Positions 33,600 to 58,368 of a DNA stretch of 58,368 nucleotides are shown one piece after another. Position 1 is the stretch's first letter, and every line of letters starts with the position of its first letter. The stretch spans positions 1 through 58,368 of the IMG/VR virus record IMGVR_UViG_3300046171_000264. The stretch is one strand, 5' to 3'. The notes under the pieces are model-generated. The model was given only the letters and a program-made list of their open reading frames with translations, had not been told where the DNA came from and did not search any database. The position numbers and the translations under genes are program-made. The stretch is from a virus (lineage: Duplodnaviria; Caudoviricetes).

Positions 33600-34469
33600 T
33601 TATTGCGTATCAAAAGGTTGCGGGGCTAACTGCTCAAATACTGCAGCTCTGTTGAGATCAGCGGGGCCTACAGTTGCCACTTTCGTCACTTCTTCACGGT
33701 GGCGCCGAGGTAACGCAGCGTAGGTGTCATCAATTGCTGCGATCTCGGGATCCCAGGGAGCTAGATAACATCGACACCTCGGATGGCAAGGAGCTTTTGC
33801 AATGACACGCTTGTAGATACGACCAGCGCGGGCATTACAGATAGGACACGTACGGTCATCACTGGTGGCGTACCACATCACTAAGTCAATTCCATTCACT
33901 GCGTAATACTGACTGCTGGCGCTGTTGTAAGCACGCAGTGATTCTGTGCGGGCAATAACATCAGCGCGAGATTTGACTACACCAAGCCGAAGACGCAGAT
34001 CCTTTGTAATAGCATCCGTAGGACGACCTTCTGCCACACCTTGTGCAACGAGTTCGGTGGCAGTCTCTGCGAAGGTCTGACCGTGACGCCGGAGGTATCC
34101 CTTTGACTGGGCCGCGGCGGCGACGGTTGCTTCGATAGGGATCGAGACGTCGATGCGCCGGCGAGAGGGAGTGAGCTCACGCATGGAGTCGCTCGCCACG
34201 CCGATGCCCTTCTGGTGGGAGCTACGGAGCAGGCCACGTAGAACTCGGTCGTAGGCGTCCGTACGCTGCGGGTTGAACGCAGGCACAAGCTGGCGAAACT
34301 CTTGCAGCAGAGCCACATTGCGATCCGCGGCAGGCTTGCCACTGCGAATCTGGATGCGGGTGCGGCGGATTAAACGGTTGAAGCTGCGGTCGAGAATACG
34401 ATTGAGCTGAGTGACTGTGACGTCCTCGGAGCGGCGGAGGGCGGCGTTGTAGCGCTCAAAGAGTTGCAT
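33600..34469 (-). CDS. MuF/SPP1 gp7-like minor head protein
   Basis: RADVIARTE...WYATSDDRTCPIC...PCHPRCRC. Confidence 0.9.
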   Translation of the reverse strand: MQLFERYNAALRRSEDVTVTQLNRILDRSFNRLIRRTRIQIRSGKPAADRNVALLQEFRQLVPAFNPQRTDAYDRVLRGLLRSSHQKGIGVASDSMRELTPSRRRIDVSIPIEATVAAAAQSKGYLRRHGQTFAETATELVAQGVAEGRPTDAITKDLRLRLGVVKSRADVIARTESLRAYNSASSQYYAVNGIDLVMWYATSDDRTCPICNARAGRIYKRVIAKAPCHPRCRCYLAPWDPEIAAIDDTYAALPRRHREEVTKVATVGPADLNRAAVFEQLAPQPFDTQ

Positions 34470-37400: not shown

Positions 37401-37954
37401 ACAGGAGTTGCATCCAGTACACGATTAATCCCAGCCGCTACCGCGTCATCGATCTGTCGACCCACTCCATCTCGGTAGAAGGATGCTCGCTTCAGTTGAT
37501 TGTGACTGAATAAACCAAAGCCAACAACTGCAAGACCAGCAGCGATTCCTCCAGCACGACGCTCAAGATCAGCCTGCAGTTTCTTCTTGCGTTGGATGTC
37601 ACCAGGAGTGGCTTTCACAACCCCGCGAACGATGGCACGCTTGCCACCTTCGATCTCAGAAAAGCTCCCTTTACGCACACCTTTAGATATACGCTTAACC
37701 CCACGCTCAATGTTGGCCAACCCACTAATTGGATCTGTACGAACTGCCCTGAGATGTGAATCCGGGCCTTTACCTTTTAACCGGCAATCCCAGTTTGGAG
37801 GAATGCACCGGCCACCACACTTCACATTGGGCGGTGTGCACGTCACCTGACGTCTAGTCTTGCCAGAGCGGCTCCGCGCAGCATCCATCCGGGCCTTGGT
37901 TTCCAGGTACGCCGCGGTGCGAAAACCTTGAGGTGTGATGTTGGGTTGTGTCAT
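34469..37954 (-). CDS. 1161-aa modular polyprotein: three Cys-tag/hydrophobic-helix units, GNAT-like domain, C-terminal protein kinase-like domain
   Basis: CGGRCIPPNWDC, CGASHIPKAHEC, CGKGAISKGEKC; RNAIYRKFGF; kinase motifs EGVSG/VIK/NEV/HGDLHMGNVL/IDFG. Confidence 0.8.
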   Translation of the reverse strand: MTQPNITPQGFRTAAYLETKARMDAARSRSGKTRRQVTCTPPNVKCGGRCIPPNWDCRLKGKGPDSHLRAVRTDPISGLANIERGVKRISKGVRKGSFSEIEGGKRAIVRGVVKATPGDIQRKKKLQADLERRAGGIAAGLAVVGFGLFSHNQLKRASFYRDGVGRQIDDAVAAGINRVLDATPVIRRARAERRAAGSSAAGEVVARAAGESARGPEAMRGALLSTPTQLERRATEYGNAKVLENKIKALDIEAKELNMNASTWRQKNLETFWGATRTNAGGAGDGSTFSEPATNQYLSRQFGFKLKKGDDATAVRRSVATALNREAFNLQALARQEGVNLKDADSRNAFLNRVVGPGTANFSDEARARAVSNLDRIIGDAPRGRSTAVSRKQLADTFYRDTRDGFDRYFGRIADEVRQPAGAALSAESRKAGYSELLTSARIGQSRYLAKSLNKPEAVGTKMGQGLSDLVAKEYYSSKVIGSPTFTATDREIRLAASELSGRSFSTTAPAADYLRSNGFERLTTLRSSQTRVRSSTPSPEKPDRPARRRSNAQRIADLMRQKNKDGTPRYATREAAEAALKRMRKDELQQARIDAYLAVRADLRGKPCGASHIPKAHECRKTASGNSASKSKSSKSSSRGKKLALAAGAAAITGAAVVGGRAAFKNRQNIPLYKTSAKHINTGIQKMSSKKVRDTISKLPEKYQGPASKLLGKAKVGLAVVAADAQGLKLTKVDPTNNFSTFKNPQTGHVMSVGAVDDTLVTFVSTPSGKAGSFDKFGIAFQTDLSFDQKEGLSRAQGLGVAKQVKSMFKAQLNEMPENAVLFNNPYKDDGLGNKRNAIYRKFGFKELKGVRGGNMWALKNMGKLTEIPDEQADYVAKLIRGDSADTRVDLKCGKGAISKGEKCHVGPATKVNTGAPQTGKRTKRLALAAAAIGGTALAITAPKWTPAAQRIRNNAKPFDKNNPPQGATYLTEGVSGRTWISQDEKYVIKTPKGKVNKGAFANEVNTQNALHAAGISVPKIYNADPKKGVVIMDYLKNYNTVKSLTPKQQGIAVQSALREVEKMHRLGYSHGDLHMGNVLTKGNDIKLIDFGTAGPVTKNGISDINNLISAAKDTNAPLFTAMTNRRKALQTKISQGKALNQKDLLEFHEAVRKDLRRAS

Positions 37955-45910: not shown

Positions 45911-46156
45911 TCAATCTGAGCGAAGCAGGCGTGACAATCTTCGTGCGAACTTTTTGATCTGTAACTTGTTGTACTTAGTAACATGCCAGTTACCACATAA
46001 AGGACAGTGATAAGGCGTGCCTGGATAACCACCACGACGTAAATGCGCCGTGGCAGATTGACGATTGATGTGCGGTATTTTGGACGCACACATCATGCGG
46101 GCACGTTCAAGGAATTGATCGTCACCCAAAGTGAGTGGATCAGTGTGCTTATTCAA
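45911..46156 (-). CDS. Small Zn-ribbon protein
   Basis: C.SK...A...YHCPLCGNWHVT. Confidence 0.65.
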   Translation of the reverse strand: MNKHTDPLTLGDDQFLERARMMCASKIPHINRQSATAHLRRGGYPGTPYHCPLCGNWHVTKYNKLQIKKFARRLSRLLRSD

Positions 46157-46331
46157 AAGAGTCGCTTAATCGCCCTCATAAATGGGGAGCTTCGCGCGGG
46201 AAGGTGGACGCTCATCGCTTGAGGCACGGTAGATAGCGTCGGCAGTCTCGCTGGCAGCACTGAGCAGGGGGCCGACAACAGGAGCTAACTCGCTGCAATA
46301 GCGAGCAACTGAACTCCAGATGTTTTCGGTT

Positions 46332-46739
46332 TTAGGCATCGATGATTTTGCGGTAGTGGGTAAAAGCAGCGTTGATCAAATCGCCGCGAGTGGTGCCTTG
46401 TGAACTGGCGGCAAGCTTGCGCTCGAGCCATGCGTGATTGTCAGGAAGAAGCGTCAGCGTAATGCGATGCTTCTCCTGCTCTCGGCGCAAGGCCTCATTA
46501 GTGCGGGCTAGCGCTCGGCGGGAGTCGGGCGAGCGATACCGCTCGAGATCCTTGGCTGTGATGATCCCGTGTTCGATAGCTCGCTGCATCATTTGATGCA
46601 CGCACTGTCGAGATACCCCGAGCTCGTGGGCAAGATCGGTCCACTTAGCAAAGCCGCGGCGTTGGTACTGCGCTTCGGCGTGTTCGATGAGTTCGGTGTA
46701 ACGACCGATAAGAAGTGGTTTAGGCATATGGAAGCTCAA
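46332..46739 (-). CDS. Putative HTH DNA-binding protein
   Basis: WTDLAHELGVSRQCVHQ. Confidence 0.65.
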   Translation of the reverse strand: MSFHMPKPLLIGRYTELIEHAEAQYQRRGFAKWTDLAHELGVSRQCVHQMMQRAIEHGIITAKDLERYRSPDSRRALARTNEALRREQEKHRITLTLLPDNHAWLERKLAASSQGTTRGDLINAAFTHYRKIIDA

Positions 46740-47171
46740 TAGTGACGACAGTCAAGCCGCTCCACCCCAGCTCTTCCAAAGCGGCGGCACGGCGATGTGC
46801 CGTAACGGACTCGGTAAAGCGTGTGGCTCGGATGGCGTCTTCGACTAGAGCAATCGGAGGGCCTTCAGGTCCGTGATTTGCCGCGAGGTAGTCACCACCC
46901 TTAGTGCGGATCGTGTAAGCAAGGCGCATTGAAGGTCCCTGCTGGGTAGTAACGGCTGTTGAATCCAAAAGTGCGAAGTCTGGCATTAGCGTGAAGAATC
47001 TCAGTGGCTGAAGCACATGTGCAATAAAGCACTGTGCCTGTAGTGGTATTGCAAAGCTCGTAAAGCTCAAATGCAGGCAAAGACATGCAAAAAGCAACGG
47101 AAATTCCGTAGTCGATAAGCGCGGCGGGCTCGGAGAATCTTGCTCCGTCCCGTACGCTCAGTCTGCCAAGC

Positions 47172-47582
47172 TCAGGGGGCGCTGTGCGCGCTAAAGTGAT
47201 AAGTACTACCACCTCCTTTGTGTAAGATACACTCAGGGACTGCATCATACAGATTTAAGCACGCATCAATGAATTGATTGACACGCGCTGCGGCTGTATG
47301 ACTATTTACACACTCTATAGAGACTTCATCCCTATTGCTCTCAACTAAATCTAATAGTTGCAGACAAGCTGCGCGATTAAAGTAGCCCCACAGATGCGTT
47401 GATAGACTTATTGTTTCCATGAATGTCTCATCGTTCAGCTGACCTTTTGTCAACTCAGTATGAAAAACCTGCACGATTTTTCTTTGAGTAGATGAAAGAC
47501 TATCGAAGTTTGGAAACAGCTCTCGGATTGTTTCGTCCCCGAGCTGCTCAAACAGCTGCTCAGGGGTATCAGGGATGTTCAT
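47172..47582 (-). CDS. Hypothetical protein
   Basis: Likely start MNIPDTPEQ within the 175-aa ORF. Confidence 0.6.
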   Translation of the reverse strand: MNIPDTPEQLFEQLGDETIRELFPNFDSLSSTQRKIVQVFHTELTKGQLNDETFMETISLSTHLWGYFNRAACLQLLDLVESNRDEVSIECVNSHTAAARVNQFIDACLNLYDAVPECILHKGGGSTYHFSAHSAP

Positions 47583-47635
47583 TAGAGGAAAAAAGTAAAA
47601 AGAAGGCCGGGGGTGCCGACCACTTGGGTGCATGC

Positions 47636-48712
47636 TCACACCAACGCCAGGCAAGCCTCCCGAGCTCGTTCGATGCGTTTCGCTGATGTGCCGCCCCAAA
47701 GAGACTCGAGGCGAGCACGCGCACGCTCGGTGGAGTCCTTCGCACGGCCTCCGTCGTGGGTGGCCTGCTGAGTGATGGCGTTGAACAGGGCGTACGCAGT
47801 CCCCCGGACGCCGGGGATGTCATTAATCCCCAGCCCGGTGTTGCCGGAGTAGTGGCTGCGAATTGTGCCGATCTCGGGTAGGTCGTTCAGCTCACGGAGG
47901 CGCTTGTCCCCAGTCCGCTTGTCACGGATTGGGGTGGCGAGCTTGTCGGAGTAGGTCTGCTTCAACACCAGGATGGCGATCTCTGGGGTGAGCGTCACCT
48001 TCGTAAGCTCACGCAGCTCATCCACGGATTGAGCGAAGGTGCGCCGCTCGATGTCGATCAGCTGTGGCAGCTTCTGAGTAAAGTCTGTGACGCTGCTGGT
48101 GTGACGCCGGCGCAGGCCGGCACCCTCCTTCACTGCGCTGCTCGCAGCACGGCCAGTCAAAAAGTTGAGCTGATTGGCGCAGGCCAGGCGGACATCACTG
48201 AAGAACACGCCGAAGCCGCTGGAGCCATCATGAGAATTGAAGATGTGGAGGTAGCGGCGGACCCGGTCACCGGGGAGCACTTCGTCCTCGGTGTTGATGG
48301 CGGCGGTGGCGTAGACACGGCGCCCATTGCGGATCGACAGGACAGTCTCGAGATGGATGTCCTCTCGCAAGTAGTCGAGGAGGTTCACCAGGGCGTTGTT
48401 CTGTACAGGGGTGTAACCAGTGCCGTGGATACCGAGCAGCCCGTCGTTGTCGCTACGGACAATGGCGACGTGGTCAGGGGACTGAAGCGGGCCGTCGGCA
48501 CCCATGAAGGTGACCGGTCGACGCTCCGCGGTCCAGTTGAGCCCGGCGATCTGGAAGGCTTCAGCGGCGGAAGCGCGCTCGGGGACGAAGGTGCCCAGCT
48601 GGGCGGTGAGGGGGTTCACCGCGTAGCCGTGCTCGCGGTACTTGCCATAGACCATGGGGCCGGTGCCGTCAGCAGCGTAAGCAGTGGAAACGGCGTTGAG
48701 GCTTTTTTGCAT
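47636..48712 (-). CDS. DUF932 family protein
   Basis: AGLNW...YTPVQN...NSHDGS...VRLACANQL...GTAYALFNAIT. Confidence 0.88.
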   Translation of the reverse strand: MQKSLNAVSTAYAADGTGPMVYGKYREHGYAVNPLTAQLGTFVPERASAAEAFQIAGLNWTAERRPVTFMGADGPLQSPDHVAIVRSDNDGLLGIHGTGYTPVQNNALVNLLDYLREDIHLETVLSIRNGRRVYATAAINTEDEVLPGDRVRRYLHIFNSHDGSSGFGVFFSDVRLACANQLNFLTGRAASSAVKEGAGLRRRHTSSVTDFTQKLPQLIDIERRTFAQSVDELRELTKVTLTPEIAILVLKQTYSDKLATPIRDKRTGDKRLRELNDLPEIGTIRSHYSGNTGLGINDIPGVRGTAYALFNAITQQATHDGGRAKDSTERARARLESLWGGTSAKRIERAREACLALV

Positions 48713-48781
48713 GGAAGGAGTGAGGTTGGTGTAAACATCCGCGTTGATAAAGGAGACGCAGCCCTCCGGGGTGTTGTTTAC

Positions 48782-49048
48782 TTAATAACTAATAAGTTGA
48801 ACTTTTGTAATGCGCTTGCCGTCTAGGCGTAACGTGGTGTTAATCCTGTTAAAAGGAAAGCCTGTAGAACTGCACATAGAGACATAGCTAAGCTCAACAT
48901 CAAGATGTTGCCCGGTAGCCAGCACATAGCGTAGATGTTCGGTGTCTTGGTGCAGGGGGTCCCCTACGCCTCCGAGGCCTTTTTTGTATCGCTGGCAGGC
49001 TTGTTCGACAATTGAAGTGATCTTGCCTGTAGGGATTGGTTCAGTCAT
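48782..49048 (-). CDS. Hypothetical protein
   Basis: ATGA-coupled small early gene. Confidence 0.55.
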   Translation of the reverse strand: MTEPIPTGKITSIVEQACQRYKKGLGGVGDPLHQDTEHLRYVLATGQHLDVELSYVSMCSSTGFPFNRINTTLRLDGKRITKVQLISY

Positions 49049-49305
49049 TCTCCTAAGTGAATCAGGTGAGTTTCGAGGTACTTGTGGGCCTCGTGAAGTT
49101 TGCGGGCGGCCTCGTTGCGTTCAGTGGTGGCCTGCTGCCAGGCGCCGTCTGGTTGCACGTAGTAATCGCGCTGGTTGAACTCGACAGCGTTGAACGCGGT
49201 GATGGCTTCATTCAACCGGTTCCATGCATCTAAGTAGCCCTCAGAAAGCATCTTGCGGCTTGTGCCGTTGAGATGAACAGTGGGGAAAACAGTGGGTTCA
49301 GTCAT
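49045..49305 (-). CDS. Hypothetical protein
   Basis: PTVHLNGTS...NQRDYYVQ. Confidence 0.65.
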   Translation of the reverse strand: MTEPTVFPTVHLNGTSRKMLSEGYLDAWNRLNEAITAFNAVEFNQRDYYVQPDGAWQQATTERNEAARKLHEAHKYLETHLIHLGE

Positions 49306-49487
49306 ACGTCCTCGGTGTAGTGAATGCCTCCAGGCCCGTACTTCAGCAGATAATCAGGAAAGGCTTGCTCGATAGTTGCTCGGTTGCGGGTGTCGGCGCA
49401 TTGCCAGGTCTGCGCCAGCGATCTGCAGAAGCTGCCGCCGCAGCGGCGCATGGTCGCGAAGGTGTATTCCAGTTGCTTGGAGGTCAT
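49302..49487 (-). CDS. Hypothetical protein
   Basis: GGSF...LA..W..AD..NR..I..AFP. Confidence 0.65.
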   Translation of the reverse strand: MTSKQLEYTFATMRRCGGSFCRSLAQTWQCADTRNRATIEQAFPDYLLKYGPGGIHYTEDV

Positions 49488-49822
49488 CGAAACTTGGTGG
49501 AAAGGGAGACATAAACAGTGGGGGAATCGGTGGCAATGCCCTCCTCCTGCTCGCGGCGCTGCAGCTGCTTGATGCGTTTTATCTCGGCTTCAAGCTCGGG
49601 GGAATATTCCCAGTTGTGGCGCACCTTGCGGCTCACCACCAGATCGCCGTGCTCGATGCAGTCGATATTCAGCCGCTGCATGCGTGCTGTCAGCCATTGC
49701 CTGTGACCGACCAACTCGGCAGTGAGCCGCTGGGCCTGCATCTGAAGCTGATGGGTTGCACTTAAGCGGCGGCCGATAGCACCTTCAGGGGAGTAGGTGC
49801 GGGTTTGTTTGGTTTTTTGCAT
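49484..49822 (-). CDS. Hypothetical protein
   Basis: Coupled early ORF, W.YSPE motif. Confidence 0.65.
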   Translation of the reverse strand: MQKTKQTRTYSPEGAIGRRLSATHQLQMQAQRLTAELVGHRQWLTARMQRLNIDCIEHGDLVVSRKVRHNWEYSPELEAEIKRIKQLQRREQEEGIATDSPTVYVSLSTKFR

Positions 49823-50933
49823 GGAATTGTGCGTTGTGTGTGGAGACTAGCAGGTGATCACAGGATTGTGCAACTAACGGCAGGAAACACCGCAGATGAA
49901 CTCGGGCATGCGGAACACCCCAGCGGAGTGATCGTGAATGTCCGTGTAGTGCTGGGCATAAGCCAGCGCCGTGCGTTTGTTGGTGAAGTAGTGGCGGTCG
50001 CTTTCAAACCCGCGATGAAAGTCGCCGTAGTAGGCATCACGAGTGGTGATGACAGCCCACTTGCCTTCGGCTTGGGTGGCTTGTTTGTCGGAAAGCTCGT
50101 TGAAGCGGTCTACCCGTTGCTGGAAAGGGCGGTCGAAGTTGTACTGCACTAGATCAATGAAAGAGTTACAGGGCCAGTGGTTTGCCCGTATAAACGGGCA
50201 CCGCATGAGAGCGGTTTGGAGATGGAGTTGACGAACTCCACGCCCTCGTGAGCAATGGCGCTCTTGCAGGGGTGGGACTTGCCCTTGTACTGGACGGTGT
50301 AGGGGCACACGTCCTCGCCAGCTACGGCGCGGCGCAGCAGGTTCTGGTTGACATGGATGCGTTTGATGCATCCTGCGGGGAGGGTCTTAGTCAACCCCTC
50401 GGGGATGGCATTAGTCGAACTCATGGCGCATCCAAAAACAGCAAAGTTGATCAACCTCTTTGAGAGGTTGTGTGGCATAAATGCCACCGGATCTTTTAAT
50501 GATCCAAGACGCACATCCGTGCGCGTCGTAAATGTCAGGCCATTGAAGGCCCATGTAATTAATTAGCTGGGTCAGTGTCATTAAATGTACCTAAGAGACG
50601 GATACATTTGGCGTAGCCTTGTTCAGCTACGGCAGCCTTATTTATGCGCTCCGCAATTACGGATTTGAGCGCATCCACGGTTCGGTAGACGAGTTCATTT
50701 TCATCGTCCTCGTCTGACACTGAGTGTTGAACTAAAGAAACAGCTGTGAACAGAGCCTGAAGCTCGCGGAAAGCGGCTTCATATTCACTCCTCGCGGAGT
50801 CGAGCTGAGAAACTAGCTGTGCGTGTCGAAGATCCATGAGGTTCAGGTTCAGGTACAAAGAAAGGCTGAGCCAGAGCCCAGCCAAGGAAGACACCGACTG
50901 CCAGCAGGGCAGCCGGGTGAACGGGTCGAGTCA

Positions 50934-51659
50934 TCAGTTGATTGAAGTAAACGCTTTACGACGTGTGCCATGCGCCGGTATGTAATACCCACCAGTGCTG
51001 CCGTCACATGCGTGGCAAGCGGCACAGGTTGTCTGGTGACCGGCCTGGGCTGAGGCAGGGCAGAGCGTCAGACCGGCGGGAGCGGGCTGGCCGGGCTCGG
51101 TGACGAGATAGGGCTGCCAGCTGTGTGCGGTTGCGTCGAGGTAGTCGCGCATTCCGTGGCAGGACGCTTGCAGGAAGTCGCGGTAAGGCTCGGCAGCCTT
51201 GCGACGCCATTGCGCGGTGTAGCCGGTGTGGTTGCGGACGCGGGACAGGCAGTCGCGCCAGACGTGCTCGGGGACGCAGAACGGGTCACCGGCGGAGCCG
51301 ATCCGCAGGTCGAACCCGGACAGCACGTCGTAGTCGTCCAGGTGGGCGTAGTTGCTGCGCCGGTAGCACTGCCAGACCGAGAGCGGAGCCTGATACCACC
51401 GGACGTAGCAGGTCTTTTGAACGAAGTGGGCGCAGCCGCCGCAGACGGACACGTTGGAACCGTCGCGGTAGCCGACGTTCGGGGCGACGTCCTGGCGCAA
51501 AATCCAGGTCTGAAGCATGTGGCCGGTCTTGTCGTTGGCGGATGCCTGCTCGAAGCCGGTGACGATGCAGACAATGGGAGCGCCGTCGATGGGCGAAGAG
51601 CCCTCCCAAAGGATGAGGCCGTTGTTATTCATGCCAGTAAGGATTAGTAAAGGGTCCAC
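50934..51659 (-). CDS. Cys-rich protein, possibly radical-SAM/Fe-S-like
   Basis: N.KTG...VCGGC.H....CYV, LRIGSAGDP, HTGYT, CPA....TCAACHAC. Confidence 0.6.
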   Translation of the reverse strand: MDPLLILTGMNNNGLILWEGSSPIDGAPIVCIVTGFEQASANDKTGHMLQTWILRQDVAPNVGYRDGSNVSVCGGCAHFVQKTCYVRWYQAPLSVWQCYRRSNYAHLDDYDVLSGFDLRIGSAGDPFCVPEHVWRDCLSRVRNHTGYTAQWRRKAAEPYRDFLQASCHGMRDYLDATAHSWQPYLVTEPGQPAPAGLTLCPASAQAGHQTTCAACHACDGSTGGYYIPAHGTRRKAFTSIN

Positions 51660-51933
51660 AGTTCATTGACTGATAACAGTCATGACTCAAACGCGTTTGA
51701 TCACGTCAATAGCTGCGTCAGCAGGTGCGTCTACACCCCGGACATGATTAGCAAAGTGTTCAATTGCATCGTCTATATCGATGCACTCACTGATCTCGGT
51801 CCAGCCAAATAGGCCAGACTCGGTAGTCCATGTGATGCTGAAAGTCATTCGCCTGATGCCTCAATAGTGTTTTGGAGTGTTTCCACAATGTCCATGCAGT
51901 TGCAGAGCATCGTGATTGCAGGGAGTGAGACGT

Positions 51934-52152
51934 TCATTTGAGATTGGCGATGCGGGTTGCGAGCTGATCGATAGGGCCGTTCCATGCACGGCCTCGGTTG
52001 CCTTCCCTGAAGGCGGCCAAATACTGCTCCTGGTTGTCCTTGTCATAAGGCAGATCCGTTGTGTGCCAGTCGTTGTAGAACGACAGGGCGTTGACGATCG
52101 CCAGCTGTCCGGCCTCGGTGAGGATGGCGTGGACGCGGGTGGTGATAGGCAT
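51934..52152 (-). CDS. Hypothetical protein
   Basis: Early small ORF. Confidence 0.55.
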   Translation of the reverse strand: MPITTRVHAILTEAGQLAIVNALSFYNDWHTTDLPYDKDNQEQYLAAFREGNRGRAWNGPIDQLATRIANLK

Positions 52153-52158
52153 TGTTCA

Positions 52159-52443
52159 TTAGGAGAGATAAAGGATGTAGTCGGAGGATTCACGGCAGTT
52201 GCAAGCCCACGTCCAGAGGACGCGCTTGCGGTTCTCTTCGTGGTCACACAAGTCAGAGCTATCCCACGCACCGAAGCCGCTCAGGTACTCGCGGAACAGC
52301 CAGGCAGGCCCGTCAAAATCAAGATGGTCCACCCAATAGTTCACGTCCTCATCGCAGTCACCCTGATGGCTGCAATCAATGACGCACTCCAGGGGGAGTT
52401 GCCGCACAGCGGTACGGTCCATAAACCAGTCGTTTTTGTACAT
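52159..52443 (-). CDS. Hypothetical protein
   Basis: CSHQGDCDEDV...GAWD...N.KRVLW. Confidence 0.6.
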   Translation of the reverse strand: MYKNDWFMDRTAVRQLPLECVIDCSHQGDCDEDVNYWVDHLDFDGPAWLFREYLSGFGAWDSSDLCDHEENRKRVLWTWACNCRESSDYILYLS

Positions 52444-52446
52444 GAT

Positions 52447-52716
52447 TTACATAGGAGCGAGGATTGAATAAGAACGGATGCGGGAACGTTTTTCGGATTG
52501 CGGACGCTGCCGAATCTTTATGGTCTGGCCCATGAACTCCATCCGGCGCATGAACCACCCAAGGTCACAGTCCTCTTCCAAATAGACGTACTCACTGCGC
52601 TCGTAGGAGAACGGTGAGAATTCAGAGCGCCAACGCGCTCCGAGGTGCTCACGCAGCACGGCAATGGGCACCTTGAGCCAGCCGTGGCTGGGGTCGGAAT
52701 AGAAGTCGAAAGTCAT
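52447..52716 (-). CDS. Hypothetical protein
   Basis: DPSHGWLKV...YLEEDCD motif. Confidence 0.7.
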   Translation of the reverse strand: MTFDFYSDPSHGWLKVPIAVLREHLGARWRSEFSPFSYERSEYVYLEEDCDLGWFMRRMEFMGQTIKIRQRPQSEKRSRIRSYSILAPM

Positions 52717-52907
52717 CAGTTCACACAGTGGTGGTTGTTGTATTTGCGGAGCATCCGCATATAGCGGGTCTCCTCGACTTCGGCGGAAGCTCGCTTTGCT
52801 TCCAACTTCGCGAGATAGTCCCGGTCAAAGTTCGGGACTTGCTTGTACGTCTCGACGAGAGCCCGGGCGTGGCGGGCTTTTTCAAGAATTTGATCTCCGG
52901 TGTTCAT
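52716..52907 (-). CDS. Hypothetical protein
   Basis: Coupled small ORF. Confidence 0.55.
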   Translation of the reverse strand: MNTGDQILEKARHARALVETYKQVPNFDRDYLAKLEAKRASAEVEETRYMRMLRKYNNHHCVN

Positions 52908-52909
52908 GG

Positions 52910-53143
52910 TCAGAGGCGAACTCGAAGTCCGGCGGGGAGGTCACGGTTGCGGCGGGTCAGTTCCATGCCATAGGTGCTCGCTTGATCGAGGTAGAAGCCC
53001 TCGCGAGAGGGATTCCAGCCACGCATAGCGTCAGCTGCCTTATGACAGTCGGCCACGATGTAGCGAAGGGAATAGGAGTCGAGCGTCTTGGCATGGCACT
53101 CCCATCGGTCGAAGTGCTCGGGTGTGGCGTGCTGCTGGATCAT
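52910..53143 (-). CDS. Hypothetical protein
   Basis: Likely start MIQQHATPEHF overlapping the upstream stop; SLRYI..DC..A...EGFYLDQ. Confidence 0.6.
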   Translation of the reverse strand: MIQQHATPEHFDRWECHAKTLDSYSLRYIVADCHKAADAMRGWNPSREGFYLDQASTYGMELTRRNRDLPAGLRVRL

Positions 53144-53376
53144 TGGCCGGCCTCGATGAGGGCGAACAGTTCTTGCTTGACAGCGGAGACGGTGGAACCT
53201 TCCACGGTGTGGATGCCGTAGATGCCGTAAAAGCACGGTTCGCCAGTGCTCAAATCCATCTCGGAAGTGATTAGTGCGATGGCTTGGGGGCGGACGCCCT
53301 CAGGACGGGGCACGTCTGTGCGCCAGATGAACTCCAGGTAGCCGTCCGCGTCAGCGCGGCGGGAGTTGAATTGCAT
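53140..53376 (-). CDS. Hypothetical protein (first gene of the early operon)
   Basis: 78-aa ORF after the structured leader. Confidence 0.55.
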   Translation of the reverse strand: MQFNSRRADADGYLEFIWRTDVPRPEGVRPQAIALITSEMDLSTGEPCFYGIYGIHTVEGSTVSAVKQELFALIEAGQ

Positions 53377-53425
53377 GGTGCTAAAACCTCAGCTAGGGGA
53401 CAAGCTCGGGGGAGAACCCGAGCAA

Positions 53426-53518
53426 TGGCGACCAGGGGGACTTGAACCCCCATACAGAAAGCCCACCCCCTAACAAGGGAGCGGGCAAACTGCGCCTTGC
53501 CACAGAAGTGGTGGTCGC
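53426..53518 (-). ncRNA. tRNA-like element with a non-canonical body
   Basis: Acceptor stem GCGACCA/TGGTCGC and perfect T-arm GGGGG-TTCAAGT-CCCCC, but no standard D loop or 7-nt anticodon loop. Confidence 0.6.
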
Positions 53519-53960
53519 AAAATGCTTGTGGTGACTAATCCGTCAGAGCATTTCTGACACCTGTAAGGCTCGGACCCCACAGACCGGATGCATGAAGTGG
53601 CATTGCCGGGATCTATTCCGCTTGCGGCAGGAGGCCCAACCCCCCTGAGCAGTAGTACGTTTTACCTACCGCAACCCGCTACGGGTGCTACAACCGATAC
53701 TTTGCTGCGCGTCTGCCGGGCATACTCCTCTCGGTTTCACCGATCCCCTCCCTTGATCACTACTAGCAGCTCCGCTCCGTCAGCCAGGTGTTACCTGGGG
53801 AGCACGTCAAGCCCGTTCGCGTTAAGCGGCTCATACTCCGCTTTCGGTACAGGGACCGGGCCTATCGAGAGCTTTCTGCCCTTAGTCGGCGTCGGTCTAT
53901 CTATGGCGCAGCTACTATCGGCCGCGGTTTTCTTAATGCATGGGCTGGACTTCGTTCGAT
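53519..53960 (-). ncRNA. Candidate large structured non-coding RNA or leader
   Basis: No ORF of 60 aa or more on the minus strand; many short hairpins with purine-rich loops. Confidence 0.45.
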
Positions 53961-53964
53961 GTGA

Positions 53965-54220
53965 CTATGGTTGCATCACTTGGCAAGTCTGTCAAGTGAT
54001 CGACCGGAAGTGATTCGGTGGGACGTCTAAGCGTCACAGGACCGTTACCTCTGGCCCTTCAATACTTGCATGAGCTAAAGGTGCTGTCAAGTATTAGGCA
54101 ACAAATAGGCTAAGTCTCGTGAGACTTAGCGCACGCTGAGGGAACCTCCTGAAGTAGAAAGGAACCGCGCACGCGCGGGTGTGCCTGACCCAGTATTGCA
54201 TGGCTTCGACCTAGCGTCAA
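53965..54220 (-). promoter_or_regulatory. Three tandem leftward promoter-like motifs TTGAC(A/G)-N14-TGCAA
   Basis: -35 hexamers at 53990-53995, 54085-54090 and 54215-54220, each exactly 14 nt from TGCAA. Confidence 0.7.
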
Positions 54221-54368
54221 GAGTATTGGGTGAGTCTCATGAGACGCACGAAGGGGCGGTGAGTCTCAGTGAGTCCCAAACTGAGATCAGACCCAGTGAA
54301 AACCCGAAGGGGGGTACATCTGTACATATCAGGGATAGGCCTACAAAAAATGTATATGTATGTAGTAA

Positions 54369-55241
54369 TTAATCTTTAACAAGATTGCTATCATCGCATA
54401 GTCTTACACGCAGCTTACGGATTGACTTAGCATATATAGCGGAAGCTTTGTGGCGAGTGATCCCGAGTTCAGTAGATAATTCTTTAAGGGATTTGTTGTC
54501 AAAGAAATAACCGATCATCAGAGTGCGAGCGACGGGCTCCAGGGTGTCGAGTGCGACCTCGAGCTTCTCATCGCGCTCGGTGATCAGGGCGGCTAGCTCC
54601 GGGGACTCGAAACCGCTCGGATCGGGCGACGTCAACACTTGGTCTATCGAGCTGTCACTAAAGCGAGATAGCGCGTCAAGGGACAAACAATGAGCAGCGT
54701 CACAATTACTCAGCACGTCTCGGATGCGAGTAATTGATAATTTTGTCACTTTTGCTAAGTCTTGCACGGTAGGGTGTTCACCCGTCTTAGAATTGTATTC
54801 TGTTACTGCTCGCTGGATCGTGCGCATATCGTCCTGGACATTTATAGGTATGCGAATTGTTTGAGCTGTGTTGTAGATAGCGCGGGATATTGATTGACGG
54901 ATCCACCAATAGCTGTAAGTACTAAAGCTGTAGCCACGTGCAGGATCAAATAGCTCTAGACTACGCAGTAAACCTAAGTTACCTTCTTGAATTAGATCAC
55001 CTAAATCCAGTCCACGTTGTGTGTACTTCTTCGCAATGCTTATGACTAAACGAGCATTGGTCTCTACCATAAGACGCATAGATCGCTGACCACGCAGCTT
55101 GACACTGTGTGTTGCGTGCTTACGGCCTCCGGGCCAGTCAACGTACTCGCGGATACGTCGACAATGGTGGAGTTGTGCTTCTTTTGTTAGTACAGGGAAC
55201 CGCGTAATACTGTGCATATACGCGTCTAGCTCAGATGCCAT
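54369..55241 (-). CDS. RNA polymerase sigma-70 factor (RpoD/group-2-like, cyanobacterial type)
   Basis: NARLVISIAKKY..RGLDLGDLIQEGNLGL...FDPARGYSFSTYSYWWIRQSISRAI...TIRIP; region 4 HTH. Confidence 0.95.
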   Translation of the reverse strand: MASELDAYMHSITRFPVLTKEAQLHHCRRIREYVDWPGGRKHATHSVKLRGQRSMRLMVETNARLVISIAKKYTQRGLDLGDLIQEGNLGLLRSLELFDPARGYSFSTYSYWWIRQSISRAIYNTAQTIRIPINVQDDMRTIQRAVTEYNSKTGEHPTVQDLAKVTKLSITRIRDVLSNCDAAHCLSLDALSRFSDSSIDQVLTSPDPSGFESPELAALITERDEKLEVALDTLEPVARTLMIGYFFDNKSLKELSTELGITRHKASAIYAKSIRKLRVRLCDDSNLVKD

Positions 55242-55254
55242 GCGTAGCGAGAGG

Positions 55255-55302
55255 TAGGTATGCGAATTGTTTGAGCTGTGCTGTAGCTAGCGCGGGGTAT
55301 TG
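55255..55302. repeat. 48-nt copy of sigma coding segment 54845-54892 upstream of the sigma gene
   Basis: 45/48 identity. Confidence 0.95.
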
Positions 55303-55313
55303 GAGGCTCAGCA

Positions 55314-55889
55314 TTACGGTCGCAGGGAGTCGGTCAGCCTTAAACCCTCTAAGCGTAGCTGAGAGTGTAAATACCCTATAGAGCCATTGTTGTGTATGGT
55401 TCTGTTGAAGCTGAAACCTACTAAACCTCCATCAGAACGGTGTGTGCTCTTATGCGTGGCCTCGGCGTCTGAACGTCTAACTTCCCAAAGCTCACCTCCT
55501 TGTTCAATTATTAGTTCAGCTTCATTAGGAAAACGCACATCGTCAACTACGATAGGAAAAGCCGTAGTACTTTTTATTTGGTGATACCTAGCAAGCCAGC
55601 ATTTAAGCCACACATCAGGGTGCACATGATCACGGCCCCATTCAGTACCGAGAGTGCGTAACAGATCTCTAACGCTGATTGGAGGATAAATACCTTTAAC
55701 AGCGTCTGTTTTAGTCATTAAAGCTGCTTCAGCTTCTTCAGCATCGTACCCAAGAGACACAAGAAATGTAGTCACCATGGATTTAATAGGAGTAGCGAAG
55801 CTGTGCACCTTGAAGCCATACTGGGCTAAATACTGAGCTACAGTAGTCTTGCCACAACGAGGGGCACGTGAATAAATACCAATGAGCAT
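55314..55889 (-). CDS. Deoxynucleoside monophosphate kinase
   Basis: APRCGKTT, SFATPIK, RDLLRTLGTEWGR, VDDVRFPNE. Confidence 0.9.
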   Translation of the reverse strand: MLIGIYSRAPRCGKTTVAQYLAQYGFKVHSFATPIKSMVTTFLVSLGYDAEEAEAALMTKTDAVKGIYPPISVRDLLRTLGTEWGRDHVHPDVWLKCWLARYHQIKSTTAFPIVVDDVRFPNEAELIIEQGGELWEVRRSDAEATHKSTHRSDGGLVGFSFNRTIHNNGSIGYLHSQLRLEGLRLTDSLRP

Positions 55890-55891
55890 GA

Positions 55892-56296
55892 TTAAGGGTT
55901 AGACGTGGGAAAGCCTTTAGGATTAAGCATAAGTAGAAAGATTGTATACATGTGAAAAGCTGTGTCTTTGTATGCTTGCGGAGGTGTAGGTCCACCTCTT
56001 TCGGGATCACCTAAGCTAAGCCAAAGCGACATAGCTATAAGGCTTGAATTAACGTCTAGTACACTATCCTGACACATTAAATCGCAAATGCTGGCTAAAG
56101 CGTAGTAAGCTAATTCGTTCCAGTTAATGCCTAATGTATCACGCAGCATATCGGTTACTTCCACTGCTAAGGCTTGTATGTGGTCTGAATTTAACAAGTC
56201 CGCAGGATCTAAAACCTTGTGGCGCATGTAAGACTCTAAGAACGCTCCGTGCAGCGTCTTAGCCACATAATCTTGAATAGGACTGATGTGGGTCAT
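55892..56296 (-). CDS. Hypothetical protein
   Basis: Coupled ORF in the operon. Confidence 0.65.
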   Translation of the reverse strand: MTHISPIQDYVAKTLHGAFLESYMRHKVLDPADLLNSDHIQALAVEVTDMLRDTLGINWNELAYYALASICDLMCQDSVLDVNSSLIAMSLWLSLGDPERGGPTPPQAYKDTAFHMYTIFLLMLNPKGFPTSNP

Positions 56297-56964
56297 GTGC
56301 GAGCTCGGGTAAATCGTTCTACACGTGCCTTAAAGTGCAGCATGTACTGAGTGAGCTGTGTGAGGTTGAGCTCCTGTATTTGGGGGGTTTCATCGGGAAT
56401 CGCAACCACAATAAAAGCTCTGGTTATGTTTAACCCTTGAGGTTTGTAGACATAGTTGGCAGCGGCAACATAGGCAGACACCTGCAAGTAGTACTCGTAC
56501 ATTTTGGCGGGATTGCGCAGACGGTCAGCCGTTTTCCAGTCCAGCAACGAGGGTTGATCATCATCGTCGTGCAAGTAAGCAATGCAATCAAACGCTCCGG
56601 CGTACCCTAGGGGGTGATACACAGCGCCTTCTGTTAAAAGCGTTTTGCGTATGCGATCCAGAAACGCCCGACTACTGTTCCAGTAGGGCGTATTTAGAAA
56701 GTCAAACTTAGGCTCTGTGCCGTCTAAGAGATATTTCTCAATGGAATCATGATGCCGATCACCGCGGAAACAGGCGAGTTTGCAAATAGCATCAGCGCGT
56801 TCTTCACCTACCGACTCACGCCATAGTTCAAGCCCTGTGTTATCTCTGGTGGCACCTAGGATTGTTGTGACAGAGCGGCACGCTCCGAGGGGAGTTATGT
56901 AAGTGCGTTCTCCGTCGACTTCGGCACGTACGGGCTCGTATTTAGGCAGTGCTTTAATTATCAT
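56293..56964 (-). CDS. PD-(D/E)XK exonuclease
   Basis: SVTTILG...RG..H..IE.YL...YAGAFD...LLDWKT...LQVSAY. Confidence 0.88.
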   Translation of the reverse strand: MIIKALPKYEPVRAEVDGERTYITPLGACRSVTTILGATRDNTGLELWRESVGEERADAICKLACFRGDRHHDSIEKYLLDGTEPKFDFLNTPYWNSSRAFLDRIRKTLLTEGAVYHPLGYAGAFDCIAYLHDDDDQPSLLDWKTADRLRNPAKMYEYYLQVSAYVAAANYVYKPQGLNITRAFIVVAIPDETPQIQELNLTQLTQYMLHFKARVERFTRART

Positions 56965-57209
56965 GCCACTTGACCTTCTTCTTCGTAAGGTACACCTTCA
57001 ATTGGCATCAGCAATGCGTTAGCATCGCAGTTAAAGACGCGCATTAAATCACTGATTAAGTTGGGGTCGATTAATCTAGTTTTACCGCTAGCTACGCGTC
57101 CAAGCGAATAGGCAGAAGCTCCTGTCTGCTTAGCTACAGAGGTTAAAGACAGATTCAAACGAAACAAATGAAAACGGATGTTGCGGCCTAGTAGTTTAGT
57201 GGTGTCCAT
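56961..57209 (-). CDS. Cro/CI-type HTH protein
   Basis: LSLTSVAKQTGASAYSLGRVASG...L..VFNC. Confidence 0.7.
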   Translation of the reverse strand: MDTTKLLGRNIRFHLFRLNLSLTSVAKQTGASAYSLGRVASGKTRLIDPNLISDLMRVFNCDANALLMPIEGVPYEEEGQVA

Positions 57210-57218
57210 AGCGGTAGT

Positions 57219-57253
57219 AAAAAAAAAAGAGGGAAGCAGATGCTTCCCTTTTA
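57219..57253. terminator. Bidirectional rho-independent terminator
   Basis: A run, AGGGAAGCA-GA-TGCTTCCCT hairpin, T run. Confidence 0.75.
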
Positions 57254-57262
57254 GTAATTAGA

Positions 57263-57790
57263 TCAGGCAGTCGGCTGAGTGAAAGGATCTGTCCCGTCAA
57301 ACAAATTATTTAGGTTGCAATAAAAATCTTCATAGCGCTGTAATATACCTGAGGGCAGAGCTTTAGGTGGTGAAGCAATTAGCGTATATGTAGTGTCTTT
57401 TTTAACACCTGTTTTGCTGATTTTAATATCGTAATTGACTGGATCTCCATAATCTATGTCTTGGTAGTACTTAAAAAGTTGCTCCATCAAAGTTTTTTGG
57501 GTCACCTGAAGCACTTTAAAACTATCAGATTCGTAGCTATAAACAAGAGCAGCTAAAAAACGCTTGATAGGCTGATAGCCGTCTTGTACTTTAATGTTTG
57601 CTGGCAGTTTTTCTGGCTTAGTTTGCCAACGAACAGGTTTATTGTCGTCAGTCCAACCCTCGAAACCGGTAACACCGGCGCCGAGAATACGAAGACGAAC
57701 TTCTTCCGTAATTTTTGCCGGACTAATGTAGTTACTTTGAGACTCTTTCTTGATTTCTTCTACGTCGCTTAGGTTAAGAAAAGGGCTCAT
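57263..57790 (-). CDS. Putative ssDNA-binding/recombination protein
   Basis: VRLRILG...G.EGW...VLQVTQKT...YDIKISKTG..KDTTY, acidic DPF tail; next to the exonuclease. Confidence 0.6.
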   Translation of the reverse strand: MSPFLNLSDVEEIKKESQSNYISPAKITEEVRLRILGAGVTGFEGWTDDNKPVRWQTKPEKLPANIKVQDGYQPIKRFLAALVYSYESDSFKVLQVTQKTLMEQLFKYYQDIDYGDPVNYDIKISKTGVKKDTTYTLIASPPKALPSGILQRYEDFYCNLNNLFDGTDPFTQPTA

Positions 57791-57856
57791 GGGGCGATAC
57801 TTGGGGGAAAAGTGGAGGATGTGCCAAAGACCAGGGATTTACCTGGCCTAAGGTCC

Positions 57857-57885
57857 AGTGTATGGGGTAAAAGTGCGTGTGTCAA
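57857..57885 (-). promoter_or_regulatory. Sigma-70-type promoter TTGACA-N17-TACACT
   Basis: Near-consensus, upstream of the SSB/exonuclease/kinase/sigma operon. Confidence 0.7.
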
Positions 57886-58041
57886 GCATGTCTGTGACTC
57901 CGCCCTAGATAGGACTAGGTTCGCGCAATCTTAGTGCACCGCTTGTGATTTCAAGCGGCTTTAGCTAGGCTTACAGAACGCTCCAGACAAAAAAAAACCC
58001 TGCCGTGGGCAGGGGGAGCGCATTCATACGCAACCAGCTTA

Positions 58042-58368
58042 ATGAAAAATCAAGAAAAAGGCAAGCCTATTGCCTTACTTGAAGGTAGCGCCATTGAACT
58101 CCTAAGGCGAGATGTCTTTCCTGACACTTGGGCTTTCGTACCCGTAGCAGGAAAGGCCACCTTCATCAAAGAGTGGACAACTAAGCCTCTCACTCGTGTT
58201 GAGTGCATGACGGCTTATCAACTAAGAAAAGACTATGTCGGCTTGGGTGTTGTCACGGGGGCTTTCTCGGGTGGTTTAATCGCGCTCGATATTGATGGTT
58301 TTCAGGCCGATTCTCGCTACATGGATGTAGCGGGCTCAGCCTACGAAGCTCCTGGGGATGAAACCACT
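58042..58368 (+). CDS. N-terminal part (109 codons) of bifunctional primase-polymerase/helicase; continues across the circular junction into 1..2430
   Basis: ATG at 58042, open to the last base (327 nt). Prim-Pol motif GLGVVTGAFSGGLIALDIDG. Continues in frame at base 1 as IAWTSGKPGRRQIFYQVP. Confidence 0.9.
   Translation, partial: MKNQEKGKPIALLEGSAIELLRRDVFPDTWAFVPVAGKATFIKEWTTKPLTRVECMTAYQLRKDYVGLGVVTGAFSGGLIALDIDGFQADSRYMDVAGSAYEAPGDETT

Follow-up and report, generated by a model that had tools for sequence, protein, structure and literature searches.

A phage non-coding RNA locus with a conserved two-codon mini-ORF, exchangeable bodies and a tRNA-Leu-derived 3' element

The locus and its surroundings

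The window, by which we mean the whole stretch of DNA analysed here, is a complete IMG/VR virus record (58,368 nt, linear) that is 83% complete as a genome. It derives from a tailed phage, encoding portal, terminase, head protease, tape measure, and tail fibre proteins, and it also encodes DNA polymerase I, a primase-helicase, ThyX, a dNMP kinase, and its own sigma-70-type factor. By portal protein, the nearest cultured phage is Synechococcus phage S-CBS4, at only 34% identity. The minus strand carries nearly all genes from ~5.4 kb to the right end of the window, and it also carries the RNA locus described here, which lies between the sigma gene (55241..54369) and a gene for a 78-aa protein (53376..53140). 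The start codon of this first early gene is located 27 nt beyond the hairpin that ends the locus. The features of the region, in the order of transcription, are:

54192..54220, minus strand: promoter-like site P1 (TTGACG, 17 nt, AATACT, with TG upstream), conserved in the relatives L002 and L003
54156..54178, minus strand: terminator-like hairpin CCGCGCGTGCGCGG with a T-rich tail, just after P1 and nearly invariant in L002 and L003
54066..54090, minus strand: promoter-like site P2, with the motif TTGACA-N13-ATGCAA
53967..53995, minus strand: promoter-like site P3, with TTGACA at 53995..53990 and the -10 element AACCAT at 53972..53967
53933..53941, minus strand: two-codon mini-ORF ATG CAT TAA, read from the sequence and conserved in position in relatives
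53902..53941, minus strand: conserved 5' block (mini-ORF plus CCGCGGCCGATAGTAGCTGCGCC), 90% identical to L003 over 40 nt
53519..53932, minus strand: type A body, ~410 nt, lineage-specific (from alignment and RNAalifold)
53881..53869, minus strand: hairpin GGGC-AGAAA-GCTC
53798..53784, minus strand: hairpin CCAGG-TAACA-CCTGG
53743..53731, minus strand: hairpin TCGG-TGAAA-CCGA
53688..53671, minus strand: hairpin GCACCCG-TAG-CGGGTTGC
53627..53618, minus strand: hairpin CCG-CAAG-CGG
53558..53542, minus strand: hairpin GTCAGA-AATGC-TCTGAC
53427..53518, minus strand: pseudo-tRNA, 92 nt, tRNA-Leu-derived (from fold, covariation, and alignment to tRNA-Leu)
53518..53512 with 53434..53428, minus strand: acceptor stem of the pseudo-tRNA, 7 bp, GCGACCA/TGGTCGC
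53511..53500, minus strand: D-like short hairpin of the pseudo-tRNA
53492..53455, minus strand: long arm of the pseudo-tRNA (3 bp, 3x3 internal loop, 10-bp GC helix, hexaloop)
53451..53435, minus strand: T arm of the pseudo-tRNA (5-bp stem, loop TTCAAGT)
53427, minus strand: discriminator C of the pseudo-tRNA, without CCA
53404..53423, minus strand: hairpin GCTCGGG-TTCTCC-CCCGAGC after the pseudo-tRNA, a weak terminator (z = -5.0)
53140..53376, minus strand: first downstream (early) gene, 78 aa, of no known family; the anchor for finding relatives

Relatives of the locus were gathered in three ways, through the neighbouring sigma factor, through the 78-aa gene, and through DNA patterns, and together with the window they form a family in uncultured marine siphoviruses. 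Cultured phage genomes gave no blastn match to the window region or to the corresponding regions of two relatives, and no tblastn match to the 78-aa protein. The protein atlas was uninformative for this protein. Thirty window ORFs, a part of the ORF set, were scanned against Pfam and PHROGs, and among them we found no RNA-related domain indicative of a partner protein and no match to Ro60/TROVE. Full-text literature searches returned no description of the locus family. The interval is best explained as a copy of a phage non-coding RNA locus that had not been classified before; the copy in the window is referred to as type A.

A preliminary description of this DNA had placed the interval behind a triple promoter and ahead of the early operon. 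As a motif, the triple promoter is real: the entire 58,368-nt window contains TTGACR-N13-RTGCMA exactly three times, always on the minus strand within 53971-54220, and the position of the interval downstream of these tandem motifs and upstream of the first early gene on the same strand is supported as well. Hairpins analogous to the promoter-proximal CCGCGCGTGCGCGG hairpin occur in L046, L055, and L094. In 12 relatives, a P3-type motif is located 49-61 nt upstream of the mini-ORF (measured from the -35 box); in the window, the mini-ORF lies ~25 nt downstream of the last promoter. The RNA presumably starts downstream of P3, at ~53965..53960.

The two-codon mini-ORF is absent from the preliminary description. 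A regular expression recovered ATG-NNN-stop (once ATG-stop) after the last promoter in 15 of 19 loci, and the motif is visible by eye in the other four (two of these loci are truncated upstream of the element). Its middle codon is CAT, AAT, AGT, CAC, CCT, CGC, CTC, GTT, CGT, or none, the stop changes from TAA to TGA in one strain variant of the window, and Shine-Dalgarno-like sequences occur in only some of the relatives. This conservation has the pattern that would be expected of a translated two-codon ORF. Upstream of the pseudo-tRNA, the type A RNA can be aligned to other types in the 5' block around the mini-ORF and nowhere else.

We also considered whether the interval is a replication origin and rejected this: it contains neither iterons nor an AT-rich tract (GC ~0.585), its only direct repeats are two 11-mers, and the cumulative skew does not mark its position.

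A pseudo-tRNA and its alternation with terminators

The strongest feature of the locus, which the preliminary description did not contain, is a tRNA-like cloverleaf. It is the minimum free energy structure of 53518..53427, makes up 59% of the ensemble, and folds far better than shuffled sequence (z = -5.85 for the 92-nt element). We aligned nine distinct copies to a covariance model derived from seven of them, those collected first; 93.5% of cells pair, compared with 42-51% when the partners are slid. Fourteen of the 29 pairs change on both sides (shuffles 8.8 +/- 1.5, with 0 of 500 reaching 14), and all seven acceptor pairs covary over the nine copies, as does the T arm. A model-fitted alignment leans towards structure, yet the slid controls and an earlier count on a MAFFT alignment of seven copies (11/29 pairs changed on both sides) agree with this result. 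E-values from our own covariance models are to be read as rough.

The last 24 nt of the pseudo-tRNA match, letter for letter, genuine tRNA-Leu genes in 21 unrelated bacterial contigs, which come from gut and rumen bacteria and not from a plausible marine host. Alignment with real tRNA-Leu shows that the pseudo-tRNA retains the acceptor stem and the T arm, along with a vestige of the D loop and stem and the three outermost anticodon-stem pairs. It has the 7-bp acceptor, the 5-bp T stem, and the 7-nt T loop of the TTCRANY type (TTCAAGT, TTCAAAT, or TTCAATT among the copies) of a functional tRNA. It differs from tRNA-Leu in the anticodon arm, where the three outer pairs are followed by a 3x3 internal loop and a 10-bp GC hairpin with a 4-6-nt loop in place of the anticodon loop. 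The long variable arm is missing as well, leaving a variable region of 3 nt, and the discriminator is C in the window or T in relatives, followed by ATTG or ATCG and not by CCA. The discriminator A73 is an identity element of tRNA-Leu. With the anticodon loop, variable arm, and A73 all missing, we rejected a working tRNA; by sequence comparison, the element is a disarmed descendant of tRNA-Leu. ARAGORN reported no genes in the window or in eight relatives scanned, three of which (L002, L003, and L006) carry the pseudo-tRNA, and an exact scan with a 26-mer from the pseudo-tRNA returned no further copies. In L022, L041, and L093, the acceptor helix is displaced outward by two positions and has two internal mismatches, which makes these copies poorer mimics of an RNase P/Z substrate.

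The hairpin that follows the pseudo-tRNA had been listed in the preliminary description, and its GCTCGGG/CCCGAGC stem is kept by compensatory changes in L002, L006, L022, L064, and L068. Some relatives have a T-rich tail after it, which in L022 reads TTTTT. The long arm of the pseudo-tRNA together with the TTTCTGTAT tail also scores as terminator-like, so many transcripts may end inside the pseudo-tRNA.

The slot at the 3' end of the locus is occupied differently in sister phages. Within the 170 nt upstream of the anchor gene, 12 of 58 loci have the T-arm motif of the pseudo-tRNA and 10 of 58 have a full intrinsic terminator module. A sequence that we refer to as module X is followed by the pseudo-tRNA in L041 and L093 and by a terminator in L069. 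No promoter motif was seen between terminator and gene in the relatives with a canonical terminator. Pseudo-tRNA and intrinsic terminator are thus swapped for one another in the same slot among sister phages.

Bodies of different types and their structure

Between the conserved 5' block and the 3' slot lies a body that differs radically among relatives. Clustering 51 upstream regions by the similarity of this part yielded 16 groups, some of them coding, with bodies of 400-600 nt. The type A body can be aligned only to L020 (99% identity) and L068 (90% over 445 nt). Between the window and L002, L003, and L006, whose flanking proteins are 83-91% identical to those of the window, alignment is confined to the promoters, the first 40 nt, and the pseudo-tRNA, and the type A body is thus unalignable even to L002 and L003, with flanking proteins at 83-88%. 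Conversely, the body of L068 is 90% identical to that of the window, while the adjacent protein is only 49% identical. A body conserved next to a divergent protein, and unalignable in closer relatives, indicates that the body travels independently of its flanks, and bodies are exchanged in the manner of cassettes. Comparing the type A body with other types by nhmmer and blastn gave matches in the 5' 40 nt only, our model R2 matched 8 of 33 sources with type A not among them (type A lacks the sub-module of types B, C, and D), and an exact 24-mer scan of IMG/VR returned no further type A copies. Variants are present in the DNA runs X9-X18, which contain 40-60% of the sequence words.

The seven stem-loops that the preliminary description had drawn (the six body hairpins listed above and the hairpin after the pseudo-tRNA) are all present in the minus-strand sequence at the positions it gave, as are two copies of the repeat GGAGTATG and the ATGCAT copies near both ends (53941..53936 and 53593..53588). 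The interval had further been called hairpin-dense. The 561-nt interval does fold better than shuffled sequence on the minus strand (z = -2.89; plus strand -1.11), but the 3' end accounts for this: for the body by itself (53968..53519), z is -1.09, with 12 of 100 shuffles doing equally well. The hairpins are therefore there, whereas their density as such is not beyond chance. Individually, TCGG-TGAAA-CCGA loses one pair in L068, and a single long-range helix accounts for CCG-CAAG-CGG and GCACCCG-TAG-CGGGTTGC better than the two local hairpins do. A C-G pair of this helix becomes U-A in L068, a double-sided change that contradicts both local hairpins.

RNAalifold on the three type A sequences (effectively two) predicted 105 pairs, four of which change on both sides (shuffles 1.4 +/- 0.9, with 7 of 500 reaching four; slid partners 0), in a structure predicted from the same three sequences. 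Approximately 16 of the 105 pairs are G-U and fit the minus strand only. These predictions weakly support a structured body in the window. For types C and D, modelling well supports structured RNA: RNAalifold on five sequences (four effective) gave 171 pairs with 95.8% of cells paired, compared with 35-41% for slid partners, and 29 of the 171 pairs change on both sides (shuffles 7.7 +/- 2.3, 0 of 500 reaching this count; slid 1-6), again in a structure predicted from the sequences used for covariation. Types B, C, and D have a sub-module in common that we drew by hand; 99% of it pairs, and double-sided changes affect 11 of its 18 pairs. The earlier proposal of a structured, unclassified non-coding RNA thus stands for the 3' tRNA-like element and for the bodies of relatives, which covary, and weakly for the ~410-nt body of the window.

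We had considered that CCAGG-TAACA-CCTGG and the motif AGGGCAG resemble helices of RNase P RNA; the idea was dropped, as no Rfam RNase P model matches.

A proposed discrete early RNA and competing readings

We favour, with a probability of about 0.5, the reading that the locus specifies a discrete non-coding RNA that is made early, acts in trans, and owes its 3' end to tRNA-processing enzymes. Starting at the three tandem promoters of sigma-70 type, host polymerase would transcribe the minus strand, the 5' end of the RNA would be occupied by a ribosome parked on the mini-ORF, and the transcript would pass through the ~410-nt body, the 92-nt pseudo-tRNA, and the hairpin into the early gene. The features that maturation enzymes read (an acceptor arm stacked on the T arm, and a T loop of canonical form) would still be present in the pseudo-tRNA, whereas those that serve decoding or charging (anticodon loop, variable arm, A73, and CCA) are lacking. 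RNase P would cut 5' of G53518, and RNase Z or exonucleases would trim after C53427. The primary transcript would thereby yield three products: a stable ~0.45-kb non-coding RNA, the early mRNA, and, between them, a small tRNA-like RNA. The intrinsic terminator of sister phages and the pseudo-tRNA of the window would both provide the large RNA with a defined 3' end, and the body would act in trans on a host or phage target during host take-over. The main reason for favouring a discrete RNA over a mere leader is that two unrelated devices, each of which could define a 3' end, occupy one slot. In the metatranscriptome RNA library X20, three short contigs (81, 83, and 175 nt) fall on 53436-53474 and 53527-53663 only; one crosses the junction of body and pseudo-tRNA, and they are variants, each running into unlike sequence, that may be DNA; they are not taken as evidence for transcription or for transcript ends.

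Early genes always sit behind terminator-like elements, which keeps alive the main competing reading, doubtful in our view, in which the RNA is a cis-acting 5' leader controlling polymerase read-through, either by HK022 put-like antitermination or as an attenuator, with the arm of the pseudo-tRNA as the regulated terminator. The RNA does lie between early promoter and downstream terminators on the same predicted transcript, as put does: it is directly downstream of the early promoter motifs and directly upstream of the long arm with its T-rich tail, the hairpin after the pseudo-tRNA, or the canonical terminator of those 10 relatives, and the conserved terminator-like hairpin right after P1 suggests that regulated termination is a theme of the region. 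Yet the RNA is ~540 nt long, compared with the 70-120 nt of put and EAR elements, no Rfam leader or antitermination family matched, and unalignable bodies beside neighbouring proteins that are 83-91% identical would not be expected of an RNA with a conserved polymerase as its target. A terminator would also not need covariation of all seven acceptor pairs and the T arm. By fold and covariation, the pseudo-tRNA is by far the best-supported part of the locus, and it might be the only functional one, for example, as a decoy for tRNA-binding host enzymes or tRNA-targeting defences, with the ~410-nt body a fast-drifting spacer or leader. The window's body, which has no thermodynamic signal and is wholly different between close relatives, would fit this idea. 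We consider it improbable, since bodies of types B, C, and D covary strongly and are selected as structure there at least, the type A body is 90% conserved in L068 despite a flanking protein at 49%, and many relatives have a body without the pseudo-tRNA (10 of 58 with a terminator instead).

The identity of the 3' 24 nt with real tRNA-Leu genes also raises the question of a relic, either the phage half of a tRNA-Leu integration site or a decaying phage tRNA gene with the remainder junk, and phage attP sites often contain tRNA 3' ends. Both acceptor strands are present and covary over nine copies, however, which is unexpected of an attP core or a decaying gene, and the exact matches point to gut and rumen bacteria. 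An attP within a tRNA gene was rejected because the full cloverleaf is present and no integrase was found in the window: the tyrosine and serine recombinase families PF00589 and PF00239 are absent from this 83% complete record. A relic is thus very unlikely. We give still less credence to a protein-coding function, whether of a small minus-strand ORF or of the plus-strand ORF 53588..54013. The latter is an open frame of 141 codons (141 aa), but it crosses promoter P3, cannot be aligned in close relatives, matches no Pfam family, and is interrupted by an in-frame stop in the 90%-identical L068. The window and L068 differ at 19 of its nucleotides, with no preference among the three codon positions (6/7/6), and 14 of 90 residues change, so that codon-type conservation is absent and the interval is non-coding, as the preliminary description had held.

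Likeness to known RNAs

The Rfam comparison proposed in the preliminary description returned no family for the interval. At gathering scores, Rfam 15 had no matches in the whole window, and at E <= 10 the region 53200-54400 matched only a plastid ycf2 leader model on the wrong strand, a match that reflects the T arm and acceptor, and a fungal snoRNA at E = 10. Nothing relevant was found in L002, L003, and L006 (E <= 1) or in L010, L013, L015, L017, and L018 (E <= 0.1); in L006, a miRNA model matched an operator palindrome. RNase P RNA, group I and II introns, 6S, SRP, Y RNA/YrlA, OLE, and HEARO were rejected, with no Rfam match in the window or the eight relatives.

Judged by Rfam models, neither the window nor any of the same eight relatives belongs to GOLLD or ROOL, which the preliminary description had invoked and which are nevertheless the closest kind of RNA. 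These are large phage RNAs often found near tRNA islands, with tRNAs sometimes inside the GOLLD linker, as PMC12286853 describes. The present locus shares with them that a large (>500 nt) phage non-coding RNA is joined with tRNA sequence. It differs in lacking a covariance-model match, in having a disarmed pseudo-tRNA attached where theirs is a working tRNA, and in its conserved ends, two-codon mini-ORF at the 5' end, and body of mutually unalignable types.

By mechanism, the nearest analogue would be the mascRNA device of MALAT1. In the eukaryotic MALAT1 and MEN-beta RNAs, a tRNA-like structure forms the 3' end of a long non-coding RNA. In both systems, a long non-coding transcript has at its 3' end a tRNA-like cloverleaf that takes no part in decoding and to which RNase P and RNase Z could be recruited; they differ in that one belongs to bacterial viruses and the other to mammals, without homology, that processing in the phage is only proposed, and that phage relatives use an intrinsic terminator. 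We know of no mascRNA-like release device for a long non-coding RNA of a phage.

Like tmRNA, the locus joins an anticodon-less tRNA-like domain to a larger structured RNA, but its cloverleaf is a local 92-nt unit and is not formed by the ends of the RNA pairing with each other. A tmRNA was rejected: neither ARAGORN nor Rfam matched, G3:U70 occurs in only two of seven copies, and there is no tag reading frame. The C4 immunity RNA of P1 and P7 and the CI RNA of P4 are cut from leader transcripts by RNase P. Like these and like HK022 put, the locus follows early promoters and precedes terminators and early genes, and like C4 and CI it differs in sequence between related phages. It is, however, five to seven times larger and has no sequence or Rfam similarity to them, and inspection by eye revealed no complementarity with the ribosome-binding site downstream.

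Large structured phage non-coding RNAs are few (GOLLD and ROOL are examples), and the locus would add a third, unrelated family. Its link with a tRNA is physical, in that a disarmed tRNA-Leu is fused to the 3' end of the RNA and is interchangeable with a terminator in sister phages. This interchange suggests a testable reason for tRNA association: RNase P/Z would form the 3' end and release the RNA. The cassette pattern resembles that of arms-race genes, and the bodies may thus point to RNA-level effectors of host take-over. Taken further, and tentatively, the locus might represent a new class of large modular phage RNAs, in which a constant frame (tandem early promoters, a translated two-codon minigene, and a 3' pseudo-tRNA or terminator) carries exchangeable, structured cassettes of ~400-600 nt that are swapped like anti-defence or host-take-over genes. 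The tRNA-Leu-derived tail would then use host tRNA-processing enzymes to release the RNA and would be the phage counterpart of mascRNA.

The conserved 5' two-codon ORF would be a natural phage minigene with a conserved position. As in the lambda bar minigenes (PMC2490762), it is an AUG-NNN-stop ORF on a predicted phage transcript; it differs in that its middle codon varies freely (His, Asn, Ser, Pro, Arg, Leu, Val, or none) and in that its translation is only predicted. The shortest minigenes sequester the most peptidyl-tRNA, according to PMC2490762. Among the 10,006 structured RNAs of <=151 nt that PMC10690425 reports as predicted in IMG/VR, tRNA-like ones included, short pieces of this locus may already be present.

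Sites flanking the early promoters

The transcript of the ~540-nt non-coding RNA locus is preceded by three tandem promoter-like sites, of which P1 (54192..54220, minus strand) is the first, and the following elements lie around them in the window:

54345-54365: A/T-rich motif ACATACATATACATTTTTT, directly after the sigma gene
54229-54268, 54234-54245 and 54109-54130: operator-like repeats, ahead of the promoters as well as between them
54156-54178: GC hairpin with a T-rich tail, directly after P1

The GC hairpin is near-invariant in relatives, and transcripts starting at P1 would be predicted to end after ~30 nt, barring read-through at this hairpin. Within the operator-like region, GGTGAGTCTCA occurs in two copies, 29 nt apart, and the palindromes GTCTCATGAGAC and GCTAAGTCTCACGAGACTTAGC are also present in the promoter region of the window. 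Similar GAGACTCA/GAGTCTC repeats were found in the related loci L002, L003, L006, L055, and L094. These repeats probably bind a regulator that acts on the early promoters. The ACATACATATACATTTTTT motif is kept even in the distant relatives L010, L015, and L094, where it is located upstream of the promoter cluster. On this side of the RNA the base composition also changes: G+C is ~0.53-0.60 in the early-gene block (46000-54000) versus 0.43-0.49 in 54000-58368, a block that encodes the sigma factor, a dNMP kinase, and a PD-(D/E)XK nuclease.

Variation within the RNA locus and modules of its relatives

In the DNA sequencing run X17, variants of the window sequence lie on two contigs, whose junction is near 53835. 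The contig spanning the promoters and the 5' end of the RNA (window 53833-54300) differs from the window at 40 of 468 positions, whereas the one spanning the body, the pseudo-tRNA, and the gene start (window 53300-53840) differs at only 3 of 541, a contrast that is consistent with a recombination boundary within the 5' part of the RNA. Two further elements were recognized in related loci:

L069 2345-2405, L041 770-835 and L010 2840-2905: module X, two hairpins
L010, L015, L046 and others: small hairpin over GAGG, downstream of the terminator and ahead of the anchor gene (the first gene downstream of the RNA)

Module X has covarying stems and the loop YTCGGCTC in its second hairpin, which is followed by CACGCACAAA. 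It is conserved in many body types, just upstream of the terminator or pseudo-tRNA, and is absent from the window. The smaller hairpin reads GAGGTGC-TTT-GCATCTC in one locus and GAGGGGC-TTT-GCCTCTC in another; both sides of its stem differ between L010 and L015, and it may occlude a ribosome-binding-like sequence.

Likeness to tRNA-Leu

The marine phage element has an exact 24-nt T arm and acceptor 3' strand in common with the genuine tRNA-Leu genes of the bacterial contigs L072-L092, which belong to gut/rumen Alphaproteobacteria and Muribaculaceae. This identity most likely reflects common tRNA-Leu sequence rather than a link to a host.

Elsewhere in the window (34469-37954), a neighbour of the portal and Mu F-like genes encodes a 1161-aa protein with a C-terminal RIO/ABC1-type kinase domain.
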